From: Myxococcales bacterium
GTDB lineage: Bacteria > Myxococcota > Kuafuiibacteriia > Kuafuiibacteriales > Kuafuiibacteriaceae
Assembly: GCA_019634385.1 (NCBI GenBank)
Contig: JAHQVK010000050.1
Coordinates: 20,072 to 84,071 of the forward strand
Direction of reading: 5' to 3'
Length of the DNA: 64,000 nucleotides
The translations under genes were made by a program, and so were the position numbers. The notes under the pieces are model-generated. The model was not told the origin of the DNA and did no database searches. It was given only the letters and a program-made list of their open reading frames with translations. Numbering within the stretch: the first letter of the stretch is position 1; every line of letters begins with the position of its first letter. Below are positions 8,970 to 59,393 of this stretch, piece after piece.

Positions 8970-9201
8970 ATGGCCTCCCTATCGAGGGCCACCGAGCCGC
9001 TAGCTTGGCAACAAACATCCCAACACTACTTATTCTCATGCTTGAGACTCTAGTTTTGGAACATCAGACCGTTGAACATAAATGTACGTGAATGAAACTC
9101 GAGACCGTCACGGCCTCGAGAAGAAGCACTCTCCAGGGAACGGAGAGATAACCCCAAGCGGTGAGCAACTATGCCGCCAACCATCAGGAGGATGGCCACA
9201 A

Positions 9202-9450
9202 ATGCTCTCTCTCGCGCGACGCCCCGGCCAAAAAATCCGGATAGGTGAAGACATCATTCTGGTCATCCGAGAGATTCGAGGCCGCCAGGTTAAAATTGGA
9301 ATCGATGCGCCACCTCAAGTGCGCGTTCTACGGGAAGAGATTTACGAGGAACTGTGTGCTGCGAATAAATTGGCTGCACAGCAAGGTACTGAACTGCCCG
9401 CCGTGCTCTCAACGCTCAAAAAGGACCCCAAGGAGGGATATGACGTATGA
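9202..9450 (+). CDS. csrA: Carbon storage regulator CsrA (RNA-binding global regulator)
   Basis: MLSLARRPGQKIRIGEDIILVIREIRGRQVKIGIDAPPQVRVLREEIY matches the CsrA consensus (MLILTRR..ESIxIGDDI..GxQVRIGIxAPK.V.V.REEIY). RBS aggagga at 9185-9191. Stop overlaps the fliW start (ATGA). Confidence 0.88.
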   Translation: MLSLARRPGQKIRIGEDIILVIREIRGRQVKIGIDAPPQVRVLREEIYEELCAANKLAAQQGTELPAVLSTLKKDPKEGYDV

Positions 9451-9977
9451 GGATCGTAACGCCTCGATTTGGCGAACTGGAGATACCAGAAGAGACCATC
9501 GTCTTTTTTCCCGAAGGATTACCAGGCTTTAAAAGCCGTCACTGGGTAGTTTTTGTCCGTGACGAAACGCCGATGATCGAATGGTTACAATCGGTGGACG
9601 AGCCGGAGATCGCACTTATGACTATGGACCCCGTTCGAGACTTATTACTAGACTATAGTCCCGAACCCAAAGCTGGGGAACTCAATCCTATCAGCGTAGA
9701 CTCAGTCCATGAGACTACGATCCGAATAATTATTCGTAATGCGGATAGTCCAGGACGGCTTTCTATAAACTTATTCGCCCCTTTGTTTTACAATGCCCCT
9801 CAACGTTTGGGCATGCAGCTGCCGCTGGTCGGCAGCGGATTTCAAGTGAGCGAATTATGGCCACCAGAAGAGATTGTAGCGATGTCACCATCAGGAGGCG
9901 TTCAGACCTCTCGAACCTCTGGTCAATCTATCGAGCACAATCGAAATCAGGATATGCAAAATAGAGCCTGTGAATAG
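9447..9977 (+). CDS. fliW: Flagellar assembly factor FliW-like protein (CsrA antagonist)
   Basis: N-terminus RFGELEIPEETIVFFPEGLPGF matches FliW. Translationally coupled to csrA. Confidence 0.75.
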   Translation: MRIVTPRFGELEIPEETIVFFPEGLPGFKSRHWVVFVRDETPMIEWLQSVDEPEIALMTMDPVRDLLLDYSPEPKAGELNPISVDSVHETTIRIIIRNADSPGRLSINLFAPLFYNAPQRLGMQLPLVGSGFQVSELWPPEEIVAMSPSGGVQTSRTSGQSIEHNRNQDMQNRACE

Positions 9978-28358: not shown

Positions 28359-30560
28359 TCACCCATTATTTGTCGTCGCCTGGCGTGCCGCCTCAATTTT
28401 CGCTCGCGCACCTGGAGTGAGCGCACCCGCAACCACCTCAGCAATATCTAAGACCGGCATATCTTCATTCCCGTGGTGCTTTAGACCATCGCCGATCATC
28501 GTCTTACAGAAAGGACAACCAACCGCTACCGCCTGAGCTCCGGTGTCAATCGCCTGCTGGCTGCGCACGATGTTGACGCGAACGTCACCAGGCTCTTCTT
28601 CCTTCCACATTTGTGCTCCTCCCGCACCACAGCACAGCGATTTTCGGCCATGGTCTTCCATCTCAACCACCTGGAGACGCTTAACTGCCGCAAGGCTCCT
28701 GCGAGGTGCTTTCGTTTCATCGTTCCAGCGTCCGAGAAAACAAGGATCATGGAAAGTTACCTTGCTAAGTGTTCCCACATCTACATCTAATCGCCCCTCT
28801 TCGAGCAATTGACTTATGAGTTGTGAGTGGTGAAGTACTTCGTAGTCACCACCAAACGCTGGATACTCATTTTTTAGGGTATTAAAACAATGAGGACACG
28901 CAGTGACAATTTTTTTGACTCCGAGGTCATTCAGCGTCGCCACATTAGTCTGCGCTAAAGCATCAAACAGGTACTCATTTCCACCTCGACGAGCAGGATC
29001 CCCCGTGCATTGCTCGTTTTGCCCTAAAATAGCATAAGTAATACCACCGGCATCCAAAATATCAGCCAGGGCTCGTACTGACTTCTGTGCAGTAATGTCA
29101 AAGCTTCCCGCACAACCAACCCAGAACAAAAACTCATACTTACCCGCATCTTCGCTGCCACCCCAGTATCGCAAACCTAGTGACTGAGCCCAATCAGCAC
29201 GCTTATCTGCGCCGATACCCCAGGGATTATAGTTACGTTCAATATTCGTAAAAGTATTGTTCCACTCCGCGGACACTGCTCCCTCTGTGAGGGTCAAATA
29301 CCGCCGAAGATCCACAATCGCATCTACGTGATCGATCAAAACCGGACATGCTTCGACGCAGGCTCCACAATTCGTGCAGGCCCCCAGTACTTCACGAGAG
29401 GTCTGAACACCTTTCATTCGCCCCTCTTCGGTTTCAGCGATCAACGGAACTTCCGGCTCCCAGTCTGCCGGCGCTGCCGTCACTTCAAACAGACCTCGAT
29501 CTGCTAGTAGCTTATCACCGTTGAGATATAAATTACCACGGATATCATGAATGAGCTTCTGCGGATTCAGAGCCTTTCCGGTACGAGTAGCGGGACAATA
29601 TTTATTGCAACGCCCACACTCGGTGCAAGCATAAGTATCTAGGAGCGTCTTCCACGAAAAATCATTTACTTTACCTACCCCGAAACTCTCAGCATTCTCA
29701 TCTTCAAAATCCAGTCGACTAAGCGCAGCTTTGTGCTTTTCTCTTTTGTGAAGGAATATATTAGGAATAGCTCCCAGCAAGTGGATATGTTTGCTCTTGG
29801 GTATGACATTTAAGAAAGTAAGAAGCACAACCGCATGAGACCACCAAAAGATCTCGCTCAATACATATGCGAGCTTAACATTCATCCCCACAAAGAAGCT
29901 AGCGACCGTATTTGAAACTGTGATGGCTTTCGCATGACTTGTGACAAATGGATCTTTTCCAGCAATAGCAAAACCCATAGCACCAAAGTAGGTTATCATC
30001 ACCATCGCAATGAGGCTCAAAATAAGATATCCCTCTTTGCTGTCATAGTGGATATGGCTGGGGCGCAAGACCAAGCGTCGAAATAGTGCGGCCACCACTG
30101 CAAAAAGGACAACAAACGCCATGAAGTCTTCACCAGCAAGAATCAGGTGGTACAGACCATCCCCCAGAAAGGACAGACTAAAGCTAGGAACAACGCCGCG
30201 AACCAAAAATTCAATATGCCCCACGGTGATAATCAAGAAGCCCCAGAAGAAGATGACGTGATTCCACCCAAATTTCTCCTTCACAACTTTGCGCTGAAAG
30301 AAGACCAGATATATGACTGCACCGATACGGTCCGTAATATCCTTGATGGGATTCGACCGACTCTGCCCGAGAGCCATAAGACGGAACATGCGCCATACAG
30401 AATGAGCGAACAACCCCATCATAGCGACGAAAAAAACGCCGAACACAATGGGCTTTAGCACTGCGTACATCACTGCATTGGATACCGACACTTGTGGGTC
30501 TGACGCAATGTGATTAACCAGCAAGTATGCCGCAATTTCCATATCTCTGCGACTATGCAA
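28359..30560 (-). CDS. Membrane-anchored Fe-S oxidoreductase: polytopic N-terminal domain fused to a 2x[4Fe-4S] ferredoxin and an HdrD/GlpC-like CCG-domain module
   Basis: About 7 TM helices at the N-terminus. Ferredoxin motifs CTECGRCNKYCP and CTNCGACVEACP. Two CCG-type Cys-rich blocks including CCGAGG. 733 aa. Confidence 0.75.
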   Translation of the reverse strand: MHSRRDMEIAAYLLVNHIASDPQVSVSNAVMYAVLKPIVFGVFFVAMMGLFAHSVWRMFRLMALGQSRSNPIKDITDRIGAVIYLVFFQRKVVKEKFGWNHVIFFWGFLIITVGHIEFLVRGVVPSFSLSFLGDGLYHLILAGEDFMAFVVLFAVVAALFRRLVLRPSHIHYDSKEGYLILSLIAMVMITYFGAMGFAIAGKDPFVTSHAKAITVSNTVASFFVGMNVKLAYVLSEIFWWSHAVVLLTFLNVIPKSKHIHLLGAIPNIFLHKREKHKAALSRLDFEDENAESFGVGKVNDFSWKTLLDTYACTECGRCNKYCPATRTGKALNPQKLIHDIRGNLYLNGDKLLADRGLFEVTAAPADWEPEVPLIAETEEGRMKGVQTSREVLGACTNCGACVEACPVLIDHVDAIVDLRRYLTLTEGAVSAEWNNTFTNIERNYNPWGIGADKRADWAQSLGLRYWGGSEDAGKYEFLFWVGCAGSFDITAQKSVRALADILDAGGITYAILGQNEQCTGDPARRGGNEYLFDALAQTNVATLNDLGVKKIVTACPHCFNTLKNEYPAFGGDYEVLHHSQLISQLLEEGRLDVDVGTLSKVTFHDPCFLGRWNDETKAPRRSLAAVKRLQVVEMEDHGRKSLCCGAGGAQMWKEEEPGDVRVNIVRSQQAIDTGAQAVAVGCPFCKTMIGDGLKHHGNEDMPVLDIAEVVAGALTPGARAKIEAARQATTNNG

Positions 30561-30811
30561 CTGGCTCTAATCCGCACGACGCCGATTTTAATATGAATCG
30601 TGACTCAGCAAATCTCTAGCAGAGGATGTGGCTTTTCGTCGCCCCTCGACAAATCGGGCACAATCTGGAGACGGCAGGCACGTCCTGGGGACGACAAATG
30701 GTGAGCTAGCTTTGGGAACCCAATGCCAATGCCGCAATCTGGGCCAAGTTTCTTACAAGAGACCGTCAGGGAGAGCTTGACCAGCTCGCCAGTCCGTTCT
30801 ACGCGCCGCTA

Positions 30812-31804
30812 GTGGCGTCGCTAAGGGACCTTCGGAAACGATTAAAGGCGGTTAAAAACACCCAAAAAATCACAAAGGCTATGAAGATGGTGGCCGCCTC
30901 CAAATTGAGGCGAGCCCAGCAACAGGTGATTCAGGCCCGACCGTACGCCATAGGGATGCAAGAAGTCCTTGAGCACATTATGTCCCACGCCGATGTGGCT
31001 GGACACCCGCTACTCCAAGCGCGAGTGCCCCAGCGGATCGAGTTGTTGGTGTTGTCTTCCAATCGCGGTCTCTGCGGAAGCTTCAATTCCAGCATCATCC
31101 GTGCCACTGAACGCTACATAGCCGACCATCAAGGCCAGTACGAAGAAATTCTTATGTCCACGATCGGTCGCAAGGTCGCGGATCACTTTCGACGAAAGAA
31201 TTGGTCGCTCATTGACCAGTTTGACACCGCTTGGGACGACCTTCGCTTTGAACAGGCCCAGGACATCGCCACTCATCTTGCAAATCGATTTCAGAGTGGA
31301 CGCTTAGATGGTGTTTTCTTGGTCTACAATGAGTTCAAAAGTGCCATTGCCCAAAACGTGGTTCTTGCTCAGTTGCTCCCAATTCAACCCCTCGACGATT
31401 GGGATAACAACCCGGCAGTACGGGTCGGTGAACTGGAGGCTTTTTCTGGCGATGCGCGAGCGGTAGCTGGTCTGTCCACCAAAGCGGAGATTAACCTTCC
31501 TGCTAGCTGGCAAGTGTCCCCAGCACTTTCGATTGAAACCGAGGGCTATGAGCACCGCTTTGAACCCAGCCGGGCTGAGGTCTTGGATAGTTTGCTACCA
31601 CAGCATCTGGCGGTCCAAATCTGGCGGGCAATGCTCGAATCTACCGCTGCTGAGCACGGAGCTCGAATGTCTGCGATGGATGCCGCATCAACCAACGCCA
31701 AGGAGCTCATCGAAAAGATCACCTTACAAGCAAACCGTCTTCGCCAAGCGGGTATCACCAGCGAACTCATGGAAATTGTATCTGGCGCGGAAGCTCTCCG
31801 CTGA
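30812..31804 (+). CDS. atpG: F-type ATP synthase gamma subunit
   Basis: GTG start. MASLRDLRKRLKAVKNTQKITKAMKMVAASKLRRAQ is the gamma-subunit N-terminal signature. The C-terminal helix is conserved. No other atp genes are adjacent. Confidence 0.85.
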   Translation: MASLRDLRKRLKAVKNTQKITKAMKMVAASKLRRAQQQVIQARPYAIGMQEVLEHIMSHADVAGHPLLQARVPQRIELLVLSSNRGLCGSFNSSIIRATERYIADHQGQYEEILMSTIGRKVADHFRRKNWSLIDQFDTAWDDLRFEQAQDIATHLANRFQSGRLDGVFLVYNEFKSAIAQNVVLAQLLPIQPLDDWDNNPAVRVGELEAFSGDARAVAGLSTKAEINLPASWQVSPALSIETEGYEHRFEPSRAEVLDSLLPQHLAVQIWRAMLESTAAEHGARMSAMDAASTNAKELIEKITLQANRLRQAGITSELMEIVSGAEALR

Positions 31805-31896
31805 CACGAGCAGCAAGGCTCGCGCGTAGCGCTAGGCTCTACCAACAACCATATTCGCGGCTTGATCCGGCCTTGACCTCACCCCTTTACAACCGA

Positions 31897-32805
31897 TCAT
31901 GCGGGCGCGCTTGAGGCAGTGCGTTGCCGCTGGCCAGTGCGCCACGAATGCCGCCTTCGGCCTCGCCGCTGACGGGACGCCAGCCAAGCTCCCGCAGCCG
32001 GGTCGCGTCGAGGGCCGCATCCATCCATCGCGAGGAACGCGGCCAGCGGCCCGTTGGCTTCGTTCGCCTCTGACAGCGAGCGATGTCGTACGGGCACGCT
32101 CACCGCTTCGGCGATGGCCGTCCAGATCCCGACCATTGGCTCCGGCTCGAGCTCCGCGGCATGAAAAACACCGCGGGCCTCAGATTCGGCGAGCAGGACG
32201 TACGCATCGGCGAGGTCGCGTACATGCACGGTCGACCACCGATTCTCCCCGCCGTCGATAACATACGCGGCGCCCGTCGATGCTCCCTGCACCATGCGCG
32301 CGACCGGGCCACCGCCGTCGCCGTAGACGATCGGGGGTCGAACGACGACGCCTCGAACGGAGCGGGCGGCGAGCACCCGTTCCTCGGCGTGGGCAAGCCA
32401 ATCCAGCGGCCCCCCGAGCGGTGCAACATCGGACTCGACGACCGGAACACGGCTACTCCTCGCCCGCGGTGCTCCGCTGGTTGTTACGAATACCCCGCCT
32501 TCCATGCTCGCCAACATTGCTGTCACTGCAGCTTCGTCGATTGCCGCCCGCTGAGGTCCGGGGTCCGCGGCCGTGTGCACGACTCCATCGCCTCGTGCCA
32601 CGACCGCTGCGAGCACGGCGACGTCGGTCAAGCTCGCCTCGACGGGCGTGCCCCCGGCCGCGCGAACGACTTCCGCTGCGTGTGCAGAGCGAGCGAGGCC
32701 TCGCACCCGGTGCCCTCGTTTGACGAGCGCACGCGTCACCGCAGAGCCGATGTAGCCACTGGCTCCCGTGACGAACAGGTCCAAGGCTCCTTGATCGGCT
32801 GTGAC
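31897..32805 (-). CDS. NmrA-like / atypical SDR NAD(P)-binding oxidoreductase (in high-GC island)
   Basis: Rossmann motif VTGASGYIGSAVTRALVKRGHRVRGLARS. The region is about 70% GC against about 54% in the flanks. Start approximate: a GTG near aa 164 of the 465-aa ORF, whose upstream part runs into the neighbouring gene in a different frame. Confidence 0.6.
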   Translation of the reverse strand, partial: VTADQGALDLFVTGASGYIGSAVTRALVKRGHRVRGLARSAHAAEVVRAAGGTPVEASLTDVAVLAAVVARGDGVVHTAADPGPQRAAIDEAAVTAMLASMEGGVFVTTSGAPRARSSRVPVVESDVAPLGGPLDWLAHAEERVLAARSVRGVVVRPPIVYGDGGGPVARMVQGASTGAAYVIDGGENRWSTVHVRDLADAYVLLAESEARGVFHAAELEPEPMVGIWTAIAEAVSVPVRHRSLSEANEANGPLAAFLAMDGCGPRRDPAAGAWLASRQRRGRRRHSWRTGQRQRTASSAPA

Positions 32806-33016
32806 GTGGAAGACGACAGCCCCGGCCGGGGGCCTACGACGAAGACGCGGAACTCGGCCTCGAGGATGAGGGGGGAGGACGCTCTCGTCATCGACGATGC
32901 CGTGCTGGGGGCCATTGCTGGCGCCCCCACGTTGGCCGTCAAAGACGTCGAGACACTGTTCGCGGAGAACGAGCCGACCCCTAACTAGCTGACCATAACA
33001 GGCACACCCTAGGAGG

Positions 33017-33898
33017 CTACAAAAGGGATAGTTGAGCTCGATCGGAGGATGTTGGACGCAGTGGCCAGTCGGGCAGAGGGGCCATTTCGGGCATGACTTG
33101 GCACAGATGCTCATGAAACCGCCGGGCCAACCACGGAGCGTGGTGATCGTCCGGGGTATGACAATAAAAAAACGGTGATCGTCCCTCCCTAATCCAAATG
33201 GCCACCGTCTCTGCCCACTCACGTAAGAATGGATCACATTCTTCCACCTGATTACGACCGATAAACCGGACCAGCGGGTGCTGACCGAGTGCAATCTTTC
33301 TCACTGGAACCCGCGGTTTACGGGACTGTGCTTCCGCCGTGCTTGGATCCTTGGGAGGCAATGAAAATAGGGGGCGGCTATCAAAGCACACCCGTTCCAC
33401 GCCAAAATGGGTCAACAAACGGTGGAGATCCCTCTCGTTGTTCCCTTGGTCAAACCAATCAACATGCCGAAGCTCAACGGCTAGTGGACGGTCTTGGGGC
33501 CAGTGTTCCAAAAAGTGGCGAACCCGTCGCCCTGCTGATCGGCCCGCTGATGGGGGAAGCTGTAGCATGCAGGGCCCAAGACAAGACCCAAGCGGAGATA
33601 ACACCTCTAGGAACCTCGATAGGTCTGCTTCATAAAACTGGAGTGCCTTTTCATGGGTGATTGTCCGCGGCAACTTAAAGGCAAATCGAAAATGGTCAGG
33701 GATCTCCGCCTTCCACTTCGCGACCGTGGTTAGAGACGGCAAAGCATAGAAGGTGCTGTTACCCTCTACAGTGGAAAAGAGCTGCGTATATGCCGAAAGC
33801 TGCCGACTGGCGGTCGTATGGGGAGGCAAAACCGCCCCCACCCAGCTTCGTGTCGCAAACACCGGGCATCCCAAGCGATAGAGTGGCGCGTAAGTCAC
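33017..33898 (-). CDS. DUF72 (YecE-like) family protein
   Basis: The VEGNSTFYALP motif and overall pattern match DUF72. 293 aa. Confidence 0.75.
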   Translation of the reverse strand: MTYAPLYRLGCPVFATRSWVGAVLPPHTTASRQLSAYTQLFSTVEGNSTFYALPSLTTVAKWKAEIPDHFRFAFKLPRTITHEKALQFYEADLSRFLEVLSPLGSCLGPCMLQLPPSAGRSAGRRVRHFLEHWPQDRPLAVELRHVDWFDQGNNERDLHRLLTHFGVERVCFDSRPLFSLPPKDPSTAEAQSRKPRVPVRKIALGQHPLVRFIGRNQVEECDPFLREWAETVAIWIREGRSPFFYCHTPDDHHAPWLARRFHEHLCQVMPEMAPLPDWPLRPTSSDRAQLSLL

Positions 33899-48292: not shown

Positions 48293-50131
48293 TTAACGAC
48301 CCCGAAAATCTCCCACCGACGATTTGTTTAGCGGAGAAGTTACGTCCCCTGCGGATTCGAGCAAACGTTGGCGTCGAAGTTTTCCGAGCGAGCGGGCAAG
48401 AACCTGAGCCACCTGTGCCGCCCGCGAAGGACGAGACACGACCGAGTTCGAAAGACACTGCATGATGCAATCTTTGACTTCCGGCGGGAGATTTTCGATA
48501 ACCGGCAGCTCAGGGGGCAAGGCGGTCATGCGTTGTTTGAGCGCATCTACCGTCGGTTCAAACGGGGGCCTTCCTGCGAACATCTCCCAGAGCACCACAC
48601 CCAAAGAAAAGATATCTGCCCGCGGATGGGGCGGGCGGCCTCGAGCTTGTTCTGGTGACATATACCGAATCGTACCCACCATCATCCCCTCTTCGTGGTC
48701 AGCGTCTTGTTGAACGGCAACCCCAAAATCCATCAGTTTCGGCCGGGCCTTCCGATTCACAAGGATATTGCTCGGTTTGATATCCCGGTGGACAATTCCT
48801 GCCGAGTGGATCGCCTCTAGGGCCTCCGCAAGACGGTGTCCCACGTGAAGGGCCAGAATAAGTTCAAGTCGTCCGGAACGGAGAAGATTTCTCAGACTTC
48901 GCCCTTCAAAATACTCCATGGCCAAAAAGGTCAGATCCCCTTCTCGACCGAAATCGAAGATCTCTAAGCAACCCGGATGGTGCACCTGAGCTGCCAACCG
49001 AGCTTCAACCAAAAAGCCTTCGAGCGCGTCCGGATTGTCGACATGACGATCCGACAGAACCTTGATCGCTAGTTCGCGATCCAACACCTGGTCTCTCGCA
49101 CGATAAACTTGCGCTTGGGCACCTCGACCAACCTTCTCCTCCAAACGAAAGCGACCGCGTAGCAAGGTACCAGACAAGTCCTCCGCTGATGAAATGGAGG
49201 GGGTCAGTGCCAATAGAGGGCCTACATCCAATGGAGCGGAGGTCGCTGAGGCTTCTCCATTTACTTTAACCACCGCACTGATCGCGGCATCGATTTCGGA
49301 GGTTGAACTCACCGAGAGCCCCGGCTCATTCCCCCCCAAGATTTCGAGTGTGCGGCCATCAGGCGCAATCTCTCGCCCGGATAAAGCGGTTAGGTCGGCC
49401 TTGTTCTCTCCGTCCACAAACGCCAGATCATCCGTTCCTTGGCGTGGAACCCAGTTGGCTGCCGGATGCTGAGGATCGAAGCGCTGAACTACAGAACGGA
49501 GATGAAGAGCGTAGATATCCGCGCCTAGAGCCTCGGCTGCCGTCAACTCGCGAACCCATGCTTCAACATCCTGAGCGAGAGGACTCCGACCCCGGCGAGC
49601 AATGTACGCATCCCGAAATCGAGCCCGAGTTTGCACCCAATTTTCTCTCACCAACAATGAATGATCTGAGGCAGCCCCTCCTTCAACTGCAGCTTCACCA
49701 ATCAGTGGTGAAAATGGCGGATTTTTCTTTTGAGTGTCTCGATTCGATGAGTCCGATACGAACGACACCAATCGTGCTGGAGAAACCTTCAACGAAGCTA
49801 AGCCCGCGGGGAGGGTTGGCGCACGGTGCGAAACTACAGTAGGGGCCCGAGTACCGAGAAGCTGCGCCGCTCGGTCGTGCTGACCAGTGCGAGCAGCAAT
49901 CACTACCGCAGAGTCAGTCAATCCTCGCTCGACCAGTAGCTCCACCGCCACTTCTGGTTCACCACTCTGTTCATAGATGCGGGCTGCTCGGGTGACCAGG
50001 CGTCGGCCAGCTTCTTCATGGCCGTGCGAGAAAGCCTCAGTTGCTTGAGCAACCAGTTTAACGGCCACACGCGTGGAGCGACAGCTATCAGCCCGCTTAG
50101 TCAAGTTCCTCCCCCAGTCGCTGCTAACCAC
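48293..50131 (-). CDS. Ser/Thr protein kinase with the kinase domain at the C-terminus and a helical N-terminal domain
   Basis: Hanks motifs in the C-terminal half: GRGAQAQVYRA...AIKVL, HRDIKPSNILV, DFG, SPEQ. About 290-aa helical N-terminal region. Confidence 0.85.
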   Translation of the reverse strand: MVSSDWGRNLTKRADSCRSTRVAVKLVAQATEAFSHGHEEAGRRLVTRAARIYEQSGEPEVAVELLVERGLTDSAVVIAARTGQHDRAAQLLGTRAPTVVSHRAPTLPAGLASLKVSPARLVSFVSDSSNRDTQKKNPPFSPLIGEAAVEGGAASDHSLLVRENWVQTRARFRDAYIARRGRSPLAQDVEAWVRELTAAEALGADIYALHLRSVVQRFDPQHPAANWVPRQGTDDLAFVDGENKADLTALSGREIAPDGRTLEILGGNEPGLSVSSTSEIDAAISAVVKVNGEASATSAPLDVGPLLALTPSISSAEDLSGTLLRGRFRLEEKVGRGAQAQVYRARDQVLDRELAIKVLSDRHVDNPDALEGFLVEARLAAQVHHPGCLEIFDFGREGDLTFLAMEYFEGRSLRNLLRSGRLELILALHVGHRLAEALEAIHSAGIVHRDIKPSNILVNRKARPKLMDFGVAVQQDADHEEGMMVGTIRYMSPEQARGRPPHPRADIFSLGVVLWEMFAGRPPFEPTVDALKQRMTALPPELPVIENLPPEVKDCIMQCLSNSVVSRPSRAAQVAQVLARSLGKLRRQRLLESAGDVTSPLNKSSVGDFRGR

Positions 50132-51762: not shown

Positions 51763-53187
51763 ATGGCGTCCTCTTTGGATATTCACCTCATTGGTATCTG
51801 TGGCACGGGGATGGGAAGTTTCGCCGGCCTTCTTAAAGCATCAGGACACCGAGTTCGGGGCAGTGATCATAACGTATATCCACCTATGTCTGACAAGCTT
51901 ACTGCGTGGAACATACCGGTCATGCAGGGATACCACCCAAACAACCTGCTACCTCATCCCGATCTGGTCGTTATTGGTAACGTAGTCCGCCGCACTAACC
52001 CTGAAGCCGTAGCTGTCCTCGAAAAAGGACTCAAATATGCCTCATTCCCAGAAACCCTGGGGGAATTATTCCTAAAAGAGCGACGTTCGCTCGTCGTTGC
52101 TGGCACTCACGGCAAGACAACAACCAGTAGCCTCTTAGCGTGGTTACTCACTCACGCGGGGAAAGATCCCGGCATGTTAATCGGCGGCATTCCCCAGAAC
52201 TTTGGCGAAGGTTTCCGAATGGGTTCGGGTCCGGCATTCGTTGTAGAAGGTGATGAGTACGACACCGCATTTTTTGATAAACGGCCAAAATTTCTTTCTT
52301 ATTGCCCTCAGCTGGCCATTTTAACTTCCCTTGAGTACGATCACGCCGACATCTATCCCGACCTGGAATCTATTGAGATGCGTTTTGATCAACTGACAAC
52401 TCTCGTGCCGAAGACCGGATATATTTTGGCCTGCGCCTCCTCGGAACCAGTTCTGCGAAGAAAATCCCGTGCTGAAGCAAAGTGGGAAACATACTCTGCG
52501 AAGCCCGGTATTGAAGCCGATTGGCAAGTTAGTCATGTACTACCACACACCGATGGCGTCCGGTTTACTATCCTCCACCAAGGCACATCCATGGGCGACG
52601 TCAATCTTCCCATGTCCGGAAGGTATAATGTGGAGAATGCCTTAGCAGCCACTGCCGCCGCCATACATGAAGGCCTGAGTTTCGACGAAGCCCGAGAGGG
52701 CCTTGCTTCATTCAACGGGGTCGCCCGCCGACAAACAGTCGTAGCAGAAATCAACGAAATTAGGATCATAGACGACTTTGCCCATCATCCAACCGCCGTA
52801 GCAAGCACCCTGGACGGTATTCGAGAACGGTACGGCGCCAACGGGCGTATCCTAGCGGTCTTTGAACCCAGGAGTGCCACAAGTTCTCGCAAGTACTTCC
52901 AAAGCGCCTATGCAAATGCCTTTGGAGCAGCTGACTACGCGCTGATTGCGCCCGTCGGTCGTTCAGAGCTCAGCATCGAAGAGCGGCTCGACACCACTCA
53001 ACTAGCAGAACATATCCAAGCCTTAGGCACTCAAGCTCGTGCGTTCACCGATTTAGACGCTCTTGTTCAGGCCATCGCAATTCTAGCTCGCCCCCGCGAC
53101 ACCATCGTGTTCATGAGCAATGGTGGATTTGATGAGATCCACAAAAAGACCCAAGAGCGACTCGCCCAAAGGCCTAAAGATAGATAG
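51763..53187 (+). CDS. mpl: UDP-N-acetylmuramate:L-alanyl-gamma-D-glutamyl-meso-diaminopimelate ligase (murein peptide ligase)
   Basis: IHLIGICGTGMGSFAGLLKASGHRVRGSDHNVYPPMS, GTHGKTTT and EGDEYDTAFFDKRPKF...LEYDHADI are collinear with E. coli Mpl. Confidence 0.85.
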   Translation: MASSLDIHLIGICGTGMGSFAGLLKASGHRVRGSDHNVYPPMSDKLTAWNIPVMQGYHPNNLLPHPDLVVIGNVVRRTNPEAVAVLEKGLKYASFPETLGELFLKERRSLVVAGTHGKTTTSSLLAWLLTHAGKDPGMLIGGIPQNFGEGFRMGSGPAFVVEGDEYDTAFFDKRPKFLSYCPQLAILTSLEYDHADIYPDLESIEMRFDQLTTLVPKTGYILACASSEPVLRRKSRAEAKWETYSAKPGIEADWQVSHVLPHTDGVRFTILHQGTSMGDVNLPMSGRYNVENALAATAAAIHEGLSFDEAREGLASFNGVARRQTVVAEINEIRIIDDFAHHPTAVASTLDGIRERYGANGRILAVFEPRSATSSRKYFQSAYANAFGAADYALIAPVGRSELSIEERLDTTQLAEHIQALGTQARAFTDLDALVQAIAILARPRDTIVFMSNGGFDEIHKKTQERLAQRPKDR

Positions 53188-53470: not shown

Positions 53471-55285
<1,815 letters not shown>

Positions 55286-55666
55286 ATATTTCTATACCTT
55301 CCAAAATTTGCGCATGCCTCTTTGGCTAACGCAGTCCTATAATTGTATACATCTGTAAACTAGCAAATATTGTATCGTTCGCACCACAGAACGCATAGCG
55401 TAAACATGCCCACTAAATGGGCGCATCTGTCGAAGGCACGCGACACAAGAGTATGATGCGTTCTGGCCAAAGCGCAAGACATACTCGCTATGTCCACTAA
55501 GAATGGCAACATCATAGTTACGCATGTCGATTAACGTGTCCTCGGTCTTCACTTTCGAATGCAGAATTGCACAACACATGTGCGTAGAAGAACTCCCGCA
55601 CCCTAAGCGACTGTTGTGGCTCTATCCGTAATTCTCAGTAGTGCCTCAACCAGGTCAATCTCCAGG

Positions 55667-55778
55667 TTAACCATATACAGCAAAGACTCCTTGAATTGAT
55701 TCTGTAAGAATCAACAAGGAGTCGCGCAGCAGGGCATTGCCCCGCTGCGAAGCTGGAACTTGGGTTCAACCCAAGTTC
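55667..55778 (+). repeat. MITE-like structured repeat, copy D (full length)
   Basis: tACAGCAAAGactccttgaattgattctgtaagaatcaacaaggagtcgcgcagcagggcattgccccgctgcg...ggaacttgggttcaacccaagttctTTCTGCTGTa. Confidence 0.85.
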
Positions 55779-56071
55779 TTTCTGCTGTAAAGGTATCGCT
55801 CGGCCTACTCTTCACCTGAGGTATGTCTTTTACGTCGGAGGTGCTCTATGACTCGCCCCCAATTAGCGAAATGTCCGGCGACCTGCGATCCCCCGTCTTG
55901 CTGCTAGCCTCTCCTTCAACTCGCTATGACCAACCTCGATCCGAGTAAAACATTCAGGTAAACCAAGGTATTTCGCAATAGTTCTACGCGGACCTTAAAG
56001 ACACGCCATAGTGAGGAATACTCCTCCATCAGTGATAGAGGAGTATTTGAACCACAAAATTAACCCACCTC

Positions 56072-57727
56072 TTACCGGTAGAGACGATAGATAGTGCCAC
56101 CATCTGTGAGAATATAGATCGATCCGTCTGGAGCTTCGGACAACTCTCGAAAACGAACATTCATATCCTCAAACATTTTGGTTTCGCTGATCACCGCTTC
56201 ACCATCCAACGTAAGACGTGAAATATGTCGCCCTGCCAACGCACCTACGAATAGGTTCCCTTTCCATTCGGGAAACATATTCCCTCGATAAAAAATCATC
56301 CCTGATGGGGCTATAGACGGCGTCCAGTAGTGGATCGGCTCTATGAAACCCTGTCCTGCATGGTCATCCGGAATCTGTTCTCCATTGTAATGGCTTCCAT
56401 AACAAGCTAACGGCCAACCATAGTTTTCACCTGCTCGCGGAATATTAACCTCGTCCCCACCTTGAGGACCATGTTCATGATTCCATATCTTTCCGGTTGT
56501 TGGATGAACAGCCATTCCCTGAATATTGCGATGCCCATAAGACCAGATTTCTGGCCTTGCATTTGCTTGATTCACAAACGGATTATCATTGGGAACCTGA
56601 CCATCAGGATGGATGCGGATGATCGTTCCAAGATGGTTATTGATATTCTGAGCTTGATCATACTCAAAATATTCGCCGAGGCCGATAAATAGATGCCCAT
56701 CCTCGTGGAATGCCAATCGACAGCCATAGTGAAGACCCCCTCCTCCTATTTTGGTGGCAGTAAATATTACCATCCAGTCCTGTAATCGCGCCCCATCAAA
56801 ACGAGCGCGGGCCACCTCCGTTCCCGACTGATTTCCCTCTTCTCCAGCGTAACAAAAGTATACATATTGATCTTGGGCAAAGGTTGGACCAACCAATACA
56901 TCCAGCAGTCCTCCTTGACCTTCCGCCTCAATATTAGGCAATCCGGCTAACGGGGAAGACAGCATGTGGTCGTTACCCAAAAGGCGAAGATTTCCCACCT
57001 TCTCTGTCACTAGAGCGCGACCATCAGGTAAGAAATCCAAGCCCCATGGCCAACTCAGACCATCAACAACCACCGCCATCTGAGGCTCTCCAGTTGGTAC
57101 TGGTTCGGGGACTGGCTCCGGTTCGGGGACTGGCTCCGGTTCAGGGACTGGCTCCGGTTCAGGGACTGGCTCCGGTTCAGGGACTGGCTCCGGTTCGGGG
57201 ACTGGTTCCGGTTCGGGGACTGGCTCCGGTTCGGGGACTGGTTCCGGTTCGGGGACTGGTTCCGGTTCGGGGACTGGTTCCGGTTCGGGGACTGGTTCCG
57301 GTTCGGGGACTGGCTCCGGTTCGGACGCACCGCAGCGCACACCATTGACCACAAACATTGCGGGCACGTTGGATGAGCTGCCATTTGACGCTCCAATAAA
57401 TCCTGGACTAACTGATCCACCGGAAGGAATATTGCTATTCCAAGACTCATGGGTTACAGTGACCATCTGTGATGAACTTGATTGCTCAAACTGTCCCGCC
57501 CACCCCTGAACAATAGATTGGGTCTCAGGCAATAGAAATTCTAACTGCCAATTAGTTATCGCATTAGATCCAGTATTTTTAATAGTTATCTGACCTTGAA
57601 AACCGCTATTCCAAGAGTTCATGATCCTATAATCAACATCACAAGAAACTTGAGCCCACGTCGGCGAGGTAGCAAAGATCATCCCAACCGCCGTCAGTCC
57701 CGTGTGGACTACCCTAAATATATTCAT
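56072..57727 (-). CDS. Secreted CBM2-(EPEPVP)n-PQQ-dependent soluble sugar (aldose) dehydrogenase (GSDH/YliI-like six-bladed propeller)
   Basis: Signal peptide. CBM2 ([25 protein letters not shown]...NGVRC). 20x EPEPVP linker. GSDH blocks [42 protein letters not shown] and [17 protein letters not shown]...[11 protein letters not shown] match the YliI/Asd family. Confidence 0.75.
57098..57325. repeat. 18-bp tandem repeat (ggttcggggactggctcc)n encoding the (EPEPVP)n linker
   Basis: About 12 near-identical units seen directly. They generate spurious repeat ORFs on both strands. Confidence 0.85.
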
Positions 57728-58451: not shown

Positions 58452-59393
58452 TTAAGATATTGTTTCTTCATAATATGAGATTGTTCGACGGAGTCCCTCA
58501 GCAAACTGTACGGTGGGCTCGTAGCCAAGCAAGGCCTTAGCCTTTGAAATATCTGCTAGCGAATGCTGAACATCACCTTCGCGCGGCGGTTTATGTTGAG
58601 GAGGCTTACCTCGACCAATAATTTGCTGGATGGTCTGTGCCAATTCCAAGAGACTTATTCGTTCACCACAAGCGATATTGAATACTTTTCCGACCGCCTC
58701 AGATGAGGCAACACAGGCTTTGATATTCGCCTGCACAACATTGTCAATGAAGGTGAAGTCTCGTGAAATTGAACCATCACCATTGATGAGCGGCGCCTCA
58801 TCTCGGAGGCATGCAGCAATAAATTTTGGAATCACTGCGGAGTAGGTGCTATTTGGATCTTGTCTAGGACCAAATATATTAAAGTATCGAAGAGCTATCG
58901 TTTCTAGTCCAAATCTCTCATAGAAAACACGACAATACATCTCACCAACATACTTTTGCACCGCGTATGGACTCAACGGTTGCGCAGTCATGCTTTCCAC
59001 TTTTGGAAGCACTGGCGTATCGCCGTAGGCTGATGAAGATGCAGCATATACTATCCGCCGAACCCGTGCTTCTTTGGCTGCCATCAACAGCCCCAGAGTG
59101 CCGTTTACGTTAATTTGATGCGTTTTGATCGGTTCTTTCATCGACTTCGGAACACTGGGCAGTGCGCCATGATGAAGTATAAATTCCACACCATCTACTG
59201 CTCGTCGACAAACAGCCGGGTCCACCAGTGAACCCTCTATCATTTTGATCTGCTCAACAAACGGCGCAAGATTTTCCATGCGCCCCGTAGAAAGATCGTC
59301 CAAGACCCGAACATCGTCCCCTCGACGCAGAAGCACCTCAACGAGGTTAGAGCCAATAAAGCCAGCACCGCCAGTCACTAAGTAAGAGGCCAT
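58452..59393 (-). CDS. NAD-dependent nucleotide-sugar epimerase/dehydratase (GalE/WbpP-like)
   Basis: MASYLVTGGAGFIGSNLVEVLL Rossmann motif. Catalytic YxxxK (YAVQKYVGE). 313 aa. Confidence 0.8.
   Translation of the reverse strand: MASYLVTGGAGFIGSNLVEVLLRRGDDVRVLDDLSTGRMENLAPFVEQIKMIEGSLVDPAVCRRAVDGVEFILHHGALPSVPKSMKEPIKTHQINVNGTLGLLMAAKEARVRRIVYAASSSAYGDTPVLPKVESMTAQPLSPYAVQKYVGEMYCRVFYERFGLETIALRYFNIFGPRQDPNSTYSAVIPKFIAACLRDEAPLINGDGSISRDFTFIDNVVQANIKACVASSEAVGKVFNIACGERISLLELAQTIQQIIGRGKPPQHKPPREGDVQHSLADISKAKALLGYEPTVQFAEGLRRTISYYEETIS

Follow-up and report, generated by a model that had tools for sequence, protein, structure and literature searches.

The 64,000-nucleotide stretch analyzed here, from contig JAHQVK010000050.1 of a Myxococcales bacterium (hereafter the window), carries a solitary gene for the gamma subunit of F1 ATP synthase, atpG, at positions 30812-31804 of the + strand. 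This gene is most probably the canonical, orthologous F1 gamma gene of its host, at a relocated position that is ancestral to a whole clade. The solitary position is not specific to the window genome and is inherited across an uncultured Myxococcota clade, and its combination with a promoter-like element of the gene's own and a conserved insertion of ~40 amino acids (aa) at the site used by phototroph gammas constitutes a previously undescribed variant of F1 gamma. The original prediction, made from the window alone, had read the gene as either a second, diverged atpG paralogue or a member of a dispersed atp operon.

The open reading frame (ORF) starts with GTG, encodes 330 aa and appears with exactly these coordinates in the ORF list; its product is 100% identical to P0001, NCBI MBX2810912.1, from a 'Myxococcales bacterium' metagenome-assembled genome (MAG; 159-kb contig), while exact-sequence look-ups of the window gamma and of P0001 returned no entry. 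The predicted full-length gamma subunit was confirmed by scores far above family cutoffs, with an end-to-end match to PF00231 (320.8 bits against a cutoff of 39.9, E=1.3e-95) and a match to the NCBIfam equivalog TIGR01146, 'ATP synthase F1 subunit gamma' (323.2 bits against 194.45), that covers residues 1-329 of 330 and model positions 1-286 of 286. The N-terminus, MASLRDLRKR...KITKAMKMVAASKL, aligns with solved gammas from residue 1, so that the GTG start is correct. A gamma subunit of N-ATPase type was considered and rejected: TIGR03323 reached only 92.1 bits against a cutoff of 282.35, matching just the C-terminal 76 residues, and no operon of the atpDCQRBEFAG type surrounds the gene.

In architecture the protein conforms to the standard bacterial gamma: a Rossmann-like globular domain is flanked by antiparallel coiled-coil helices at the two termini. 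Its AlphaFold2 (AF2) model has the canonical gamma fold, with a predicted template modelling score (pTM) of 0.75, and the best Foldseek matches are bacterial gammas (TMt ~0.9; E-values against solved gammas of 1e-21 to 1e-19), while chloroplast gamma superposes less well (TMt 0.75). The N-terminal coiled-coil helix (residues 4-59, 30821-30988 +) is modelled with a predicted local distance difference test (pLDDT) of 87-96 and is the best-conserved region in the clade described below (mean majority frequency 0.85); the strands of the Rossmann-like domain lie at residues 75-81, 112-118, 167-175 and 181-189, and the C-terminal coiled-coil helix spans residues 254-329 (31571-31798 +, pLDDT 91-95) and carries the invariant NRxRQAxIT(S/T)EL. 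The rotor motifs, whose functional role is established by work in E. coli, are kept both in the N-terminal helix (KITKAMKMVAA) and in the C-terminal 'catch' region (RQAxITxEL). Across 108 sequences, the invariant columns are I20, T21, A23, M24, K25, M26 and A29 at the N-terminal end, and N308, R309, R311, Q312, I315, T316, E318, L319, E321, I322, G325 and A326 at the C-terminal end.

As had been predicted, the gene stands alone in its 64 kb. Pfam searches of all ORFs of at least 150 aa and of intergenic small ORFs found no other atp gene in the window, the P-loop motif of alpha and beta occurs in none of its frames, and tblastn with the delta, alpha, gamma, beta and epsilon subunits of a canonical Myxococcota operon gave a sole match, at 30818-31801.

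The same isolation recurs in relatives of the gene. Among its best 120 matches, a protein search returned over 100 clusters of gammas with ~330 aa and 58-81% identity, and all of their named sources are Myxococcota, Myxococcales or 'Deltaproteobacteria' MAGs. In a neighbour-joining tree these ~330-aa gammas form one monophyletic clade, nested among Myxococcota gammas and next to canonical ones, and in an exhaustive search of representatives at 50% identity they fall into a single cluster. Ten independent clade loci with usable flanks (the window, L001, L002, L005, L088, L089, L091, L093, L095 and L096) were available from NCBI, ENA, JGI and Logan assemblies, L091-L096 coming from an insert-specific metagenome scan and L088 and L089 being basal in the tree; the long single contigs among clade loci measure 1.35, 6.05 (L001; ENA ERZ26696514 ctg303842) and 11.5 Mb (L002; JGI 3300058926 Ga0573880_001), and another relative, with MBK8010657.1, has a contig of 7.3 Mb. 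In all ten, alpha, beta, delta and epsilon are absent within ~10 kb of atpG, according to both Pfam gene tables and five-subunit tblastn, and the gene lies in a conserved neighborhood consisting of an Fe-S/CCG oxidoreductase gene on the opposite strand, a Ser/Thr kinase gene, lptF-lptG, atpG, a Mur ligase gene, an epimerase gene and eventually rpsU-dnaG. Related taxa thus share the dispersed arrangement, which is part of the outcome that the original prediction had tied to a canonical gene in an unusual but ancestral place. Of its two proposals, the dispersed operon is supported by the ten solitary loci in the same neighborhood, while the second paralogue is disfavored; the term 'diverged' applies to the clade-specific insertion of ~40 aa but not to the core, which is that of an ordinary bacterial gamma. 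One 289-aa gamma on a 1.4 kb Logan contig (P0114) falls inside the 330-aa clade in the neighbour-joining tree and has no insertion; it may have lost the insertion secondarily, or the tree or the assembly may be at fault.

For comparison, we used 79 non-clade loci from a genome scan made with the whole gamma protein, whose matches were dominated by the universal KITKAMKM pattern and in which L005 was the only clade genome. The P-loop motif of alpha and/or beta lies beside gamma in 67 of these 79 loci, and tblastn detected alpha/beta fragments in three further short contigs (L062, L078, L083). The nearest gammas without the insertion, P0117 and P0120 (49-51% identical), sit in atpH-A-G-D-C operons; the core of the window gamma shares 51% identity with P0117, and 55-58% over aligned columns with Myxococcota gammas.

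Two gamma genes, atpC1 and atpC2, coexist in Arabidopsis, and a second, specialized gamma paralogue that is encoded beside a canonical atpA-atpG-atpD operon and swaps into alpha3beta3 under some condition would suit a solitary gene with its own promoter-like element and a lineage-specific insertion. Solitary ~297-aa gammas on Nitrospiraceae MAG contigs (L069, L072, L079) hint that extra copies may not be rare in MAG data, and ectopic atpG duplicates have been reported in Aquifex aeolicus and Acidithiobacillus ferrooxidans (Koumandou & Kossida 2014, PMC4154653). These two were, however, the only holders of such duplicates among ~215 genomes surveyed, and the same survey found the atp locus of Aquificae and Beggiatoa split at both IA|IG and IG|IB, which amounts to a solitary atpG (PMC4154653); because of these numbers, a relocated single-copy gene is far likelier than a paralogue. 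Several of our results point the same way. The window protein exceeds the equivalog cutoff with all rotor elements strongly conserved, and its clade branches where the orthologue is expected, beside canonical Myxococcota gammas. Each contig of at least 1 Mb occurs once among the best 120 gamma matches, which reach down to canonical-type gammas at 47-51% identity, and this argues weakly against a second copy. Other Myxococcota show stepwise breakage of the operon without duplication, with H-A-G lacking D-C in L012 and L082, G-D-C lacking H-A at the P0199 locus (whose 289-aa gamma is not a clade member) and a solitary, insertion-less gamma in the Deltaproteobacteria MAG locus L058. A paralogue is, in our judgment, improbable.

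The lone gammas of L069, L072, L079 and L058, outside the clade, are insertion-less, have 293-297 aa and show no alpha, beta, delta or epsilon in the available flanks, unlike most Nitrospira loci of the same scan, which are canonical. These genes may represent additional copies, contigs assigned to the wrong bin, or further independent breaks of the operon. When the neighbors of clade atpG were compared with the gamma flanks in L012, L058 and L082 as a test of the relocation path, none were in common. The survey of atp loci does not mention Myxococcales (0 occurrences of 'Myxococc' in PMC4154653), a Nitrospirales genome paper does not address solitary atpG, and we found nothing specific on atp operon organization in Myxococcota in the literature.

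The feature that sets the clade proteins apart is an insertion at residues 194-247 (31391-31552 +), which alignment places between the LLPI strand and the RFEPS at the start of the C-terminal helix and for which Bacillus and E. coli gammas have no aligned counterpart. Across 103 clade proteins this loop measures 50-60 aa, compared with 12-18 aa in sister canonical gammas. The conserved features of its N-terminal half are W197, VRVGEL, SG and AVAG; there is a second conserved Trp, and the insertion is acidic, with a net charge of about -8.7. The cysteine frequency in the insertions of the 103 clade sequences is 0.0, and in the absence of Cys residues there can be no thioredoxin switch. The loop is anchored by LLPI (188-191) and RFEPS (249-253) here and by LLPL (230-233) and EFEQDP (283-288) in the spinach chloroplast gamma 6fkf_g; the residues between the anchors number 56 here (LLPI to HRFEPS), 49 in 6fkf_g and ~11 in PS3. 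In cyanobacteria, the gamma insertion takes the form of a beta-hairpin in contact with the DELSEED loop of beta, where it enhances MgADP inhibition and assists synthesis (Kondo et al. 2021, PMC8390522), and it has been described as conserved only in phototrophs (PMC8390522). The phototroph motif ...DE(I/L)FRLTT...VER... is absent from the clade consensus, and the insertion scores no better against 6fkf_g than against unrelated proteins. A chloroplast-like hairpin was rejected as an assignment for the insertion, with neither sequence similarity nor a confident AF2 structure to recommend it.

Other gammas of 315-363 aa (P0293, P0367, P0331, P0387, P0305, P0322, P0366 and P0375) also have insertions in this loop, each unlike the others, which fall between LLP(I/V) and Y.YEP in our alignment (A4); another insertion interrupts the Rossmann domain of P0322 and P0375. 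Because several lineages carry different inserts there, the loop is an insertion hot-spot beyond phototrophs, of which the clade insertion is one independent use. By analogy, the clade insertion may plausibly serve in regulation or coupling, although we consider a regulatory role rather unlikely.

The shared loop also raises the question of horizontal acquisition, for example from a long-loop gamma lineage, with the gene inserted at its present site: the insert occupies the phototroph gamma loop, chloroplast gamma aligns end to end with the window protein, and the adjacent DNA at 31880-33000 is clearly foreign in composition. The gene itself does not share that composition, with GC content of 0.537 against 0.523 for the window, and in every locus its GC and GC at third codon positions (GC3) are native, following host GC from 0.52 to 0.70. 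Moreover, synteny at its position extends over the entire clade, and its core is nearest to Myxococcota gammas rather than to cyanobacterial or chloroplast ones, the insert matching chloroplast gamma at E=0.91. Such a transfer is highly improbable. A chimeric MAG contig or other assembly or binning artefact, or a pseudogene decaying after loss of the operon, is the least credible explanation. The source is indeed a MAG, and the clade-like P0114 stands on a 1.4 kb contig without the insert, but the same arrangement recurs in ten independent assemblies, among them single contigs as long as 6.05 and 11.5 Mb, the ORF is unbroken, and purifying conservation is strong across the 103 clade sequences; an artefact is effectively refuted by the independent loci.

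The gene also has a promoter-like element of its own. In the window, a -35-like hexamer, TTGACC (30777-30782 +), is followed after 17 nucleotides (nt) by a -10-like, TA-initial hexamer, TACGCG (30800-30805 +), which ends 6 nt before the GTG; its role as a promoter is inferred, and the -35-like element is conserved across the clade. In 12 of 13 distinct clade loci TTGAC(C/G) lies 35-40 nt ahead of the atpG start codon, with a spacer of exactly 17 nt between the hexamers in 11 of them and of 19 nt in the remaining one, and a TA-initial hexamer (TAnnnn) ends 6-11 nt before the start codon, again in 12 of 13; the bases around the element vary among clade loci. A held-out set of clade loci showed the arrangement in six of seven. 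In the whole window, this architecture stands ahead of a long ORF at atpG and at one other site, compared with a mean of 0.13 in shuffles. No Shine-Dalgarno sequence lies between the -10-like hexamer and the atpG start in clade loci; this absence, and the distance of only 6-11 nt from the element to the start codon, would leave the mRNA with little or no leader. On balance, the conserved spacing somewhat favors a dedicated, leaderless or near-leaderless atpG promoter. Generic promoter and terminator scans returned nothing above chance at atpG, and there is no terminator-like structure after the gene (by scan, and with a folding z=0.60 for the 3' region). The called start of the closest relative deserves a remark: the annotated gene in L001 (10001-11110; P0004, 369 aa) shows homology from 10088 onward and contains a TTGACC-N17-TA element inside its annotated 5' extension, and its start has probably been called ~29 codons too far upstream.

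The history that best accommodates these observations would begin in the common ancestor of the clade, in which atpG would have become separated from atpA and atpD, settling downstream of lptF-lptG near the divergent Fe-S/CCG oxidoreductase gene and staying there since. The window lineage would later have lost the kinase gene and lptFG from between the Fe-S gene and atpG, and gained a high-GC gene of the short-chain dehydrogenase/reductase (SDR) family together with ~16 kb of other genes downstream of atpG. The gene would be transcribed alone from TTGACC-N17-TAnnnn, giving a putatively leaderless or nearly leaderless mRNA, and the insertion, judging by its position, would extend outward from gamma's globular foot, facing epsilon and the lower side of alpha3beta3, where one may speculate that it tunes coupling or ATP hydrolysis. 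That the clade has independently evolved a functional counterpart of the phototroph insertion and, at the same time, uncoupled rotor synthesis under its own leaderless promoter is conceivable by analogy, but we consider it unlikely.

Several observations weigh against this account. Neither atpA, atpD nor any other atp gene was recovered from any clade genome; that atpG is presumably the only gamma gene is a view drawn from its equivalog score, its conservation, its place in the phylogeny and the prior, and not from a genome inventory. A search with the beta subunit of the nearest canonical operon (L085) returned as its best 120 matches only proteins at least 81% identical and within other Myxococcota, namely Anaeromyxobacteraceae, Myxococcaceae-like lineages and the query's own group. 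None of these 120 lies on a contig carrying a 330-aa gamma, which is no evidence of absence; judging by the identities among loci, clade alpha and beta would come far below the best 120 matches for any available query. With respect to the promoter, a generic sigma-70 scan did not report the -10-like hexamer, which does not end in the canonical T, and in most relatives atpG follows lptG or the kinase gene on the same strand after ~50 nt, so that read-through co-transcription is also possible. As for the insertion, AF2 leaves it at pLDDT 34-58, with only two strands of 3-4 residues at pLDDT <60, and it has no significant sequence similarity to the phototroph hairpin (13 bits against 6fkf_g, at the E-value given above).

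The surroundings of atpG in the window are as originally described, with a divergent Fe-S oxidoreductase gene upstream and a convergent, high-GC SDR gene downstream, as Pfam and the GC profile both indicate. The upstream neighbor (28359-30560 -) encodes a membrane Fe-S/CCG oxidoreductase similar to HdrD, GlpC and DsrK, with Pfam matches to two CCG domains and a 4Fe-4S dicluster domain. This protein and its orthologues have 670-733 aa and an N-terminal multi-helix domain ahead of the 4Fe-4S dicluster and the two CCG domains; the orthologues of L001, L005, L088, L089, L093 and L095, 56-69% identical, are likewise encoded upstream of atpG and divergently from it. The downstream neighbor is an NAD-dependent epimerase/SDR gene (31897 to c. 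32800, -; Pfam Epimerase/NAD_binding_10) in a high-GC block of ~1.1 kb (31880-33000, GC 0.65-0.72 against 0.52-0.56 in the flanks). The Pfam match covers residues 174-339 of the 465-aa ORF at 31897-33294, and since it begins at residue 174, the start of the ORF as listed is probably too far upstream. L001, the closest relative, lacks the SDR gene and has a DUF72 gene directly after atpG; for this reason the high-GC block is likely a recent (horizontal) insertion between atpG and DUF72 and not part of the ancestral neighborhood.

Further downstream, the Mur-ligase gene (51763-53187 +) is a conserved synteny partner of atpG, with 52-60% identical orthologues 0.1-6 kb downstream of atpG in L002, L005, L088, L093, L095 and L096; in the window it has been shifted ~20 kb from atpG by intervening genes. 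Overall, the window retains the Fe-S gene, atpG, a kinase gene (48293-50131), the Mur ligase gene, an epimerase gene (58452-59393), rpsU and dnaG.

Three other features of the window were recorded. Overlapping csrA (9082-9450) and fliW (9447-9977) form a flagellin-linked CsrA-FliW regulator pair, and the window shows no flagellar genes. A GH6 cellulase (53471-55285) and a glucose/sorbosone dehydrogenase-like protein (56072-57727) are secreted enzymes containing CBM2, and together (53471-57727) they suggest a cellulose-degrading capacity of the organism. GC skew is negative in all 2-kb bins of the window (1-64000; cumulative -3.7; C-rich + strand), and the whole 64 kb is therefore on one replichore.

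A lone atpG matters little in itself, as split atp loci that include a solitary atpG are documented and the one described here is inherited in its clade: the gene itself is ordinary, and its location, though unusual, has been inherited and is no anomaly of the window genome. For annotation, it follows as a warning that genomic context alone is no ground for calling such atpG genes paralogues. Of modest interest to specialists in ATP synthase is that the loop of the phototroph hairpin takes insertions in several non-phototrophic lineages, for which this clade provides a well-conserved, Cys-free example of ~40 aa; the statement that the insertion is conserved only in phototrophs still holds for the sequence of the phototroph insert, but the loop itself is used by other lineages too. 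If the insertion is a phototroph-like counterpart, this acidic element of ~40 aa would modulate ATP hydrolysis, MgADP inhibition or coupling. In addition, a stoichiometric rotor subunit made from a conserved, apparently leaderless promoter of its own raises the question of how the 3:3:1 stoichiometry is maintained without the translational coupling of an operon. If the gene does have such a promoter, the supply of rotor would offer a way to control the assembly of ATP synthase separately, as in starvation or development.

Compared with canonical gammas of the Bacillus type (PS3, 6N2Y chain G; Caldalkalibacillus thermarum, 2QE7/5HKK chain G), the window gamma is alike in family match, helices, motifs and fold, and differs in the position of its gene, which is not between atpA and atpD, and in the ~40 extra residues before the C-terminal helix. 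Mycobacterial gammas carry a lineage-specific insertion too, in the loop at gamma 166-179. Those of M. smegmatis (7NJK) and M. tuberculosis (8J0S) thus resemble the clade proteins in having a loop insertion and are among the best structural matches, but their chains align in two stretches by phmmer, with window residues 2-190 corresponding to chain residues 3-204/205; according to this alignment, the mycobacterial extra residues lie before ~190 of the window gamma and not in the 194-247 loop.

Phototroph gammas (T. elongatus, 5ZWL; spinach, 6FKF) use the same loop as the clade for an insertion of similar size (~40 aa here against 30 or 39), and the chloroplast protein aligns with the window protein in one stretch. 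They differ in that the clade insert has no detectable similarity to theirs and no confident hairpin, in that the hosts of the window clade are non-phototrophic Myxococcota, and in that the window core is closer to non-phototroph gammas (202 bits for Bacillus-type gammas in PDB searches against 174 for phototroph ones). The atp locus of cyanobacteria is likewise split next to the gamma gene (PMC4154653). In genomic arrangement, the window clade is like Aquificae and Beggiatoa in having atpG apart from both atpA and atpD as a trait of the lineage, but it belongs to a different phylum and represents an independent event, distinguished by its conserved lptFG/Fe-S-CCG neighborhood, its conserved promoter-like element and its insertion.

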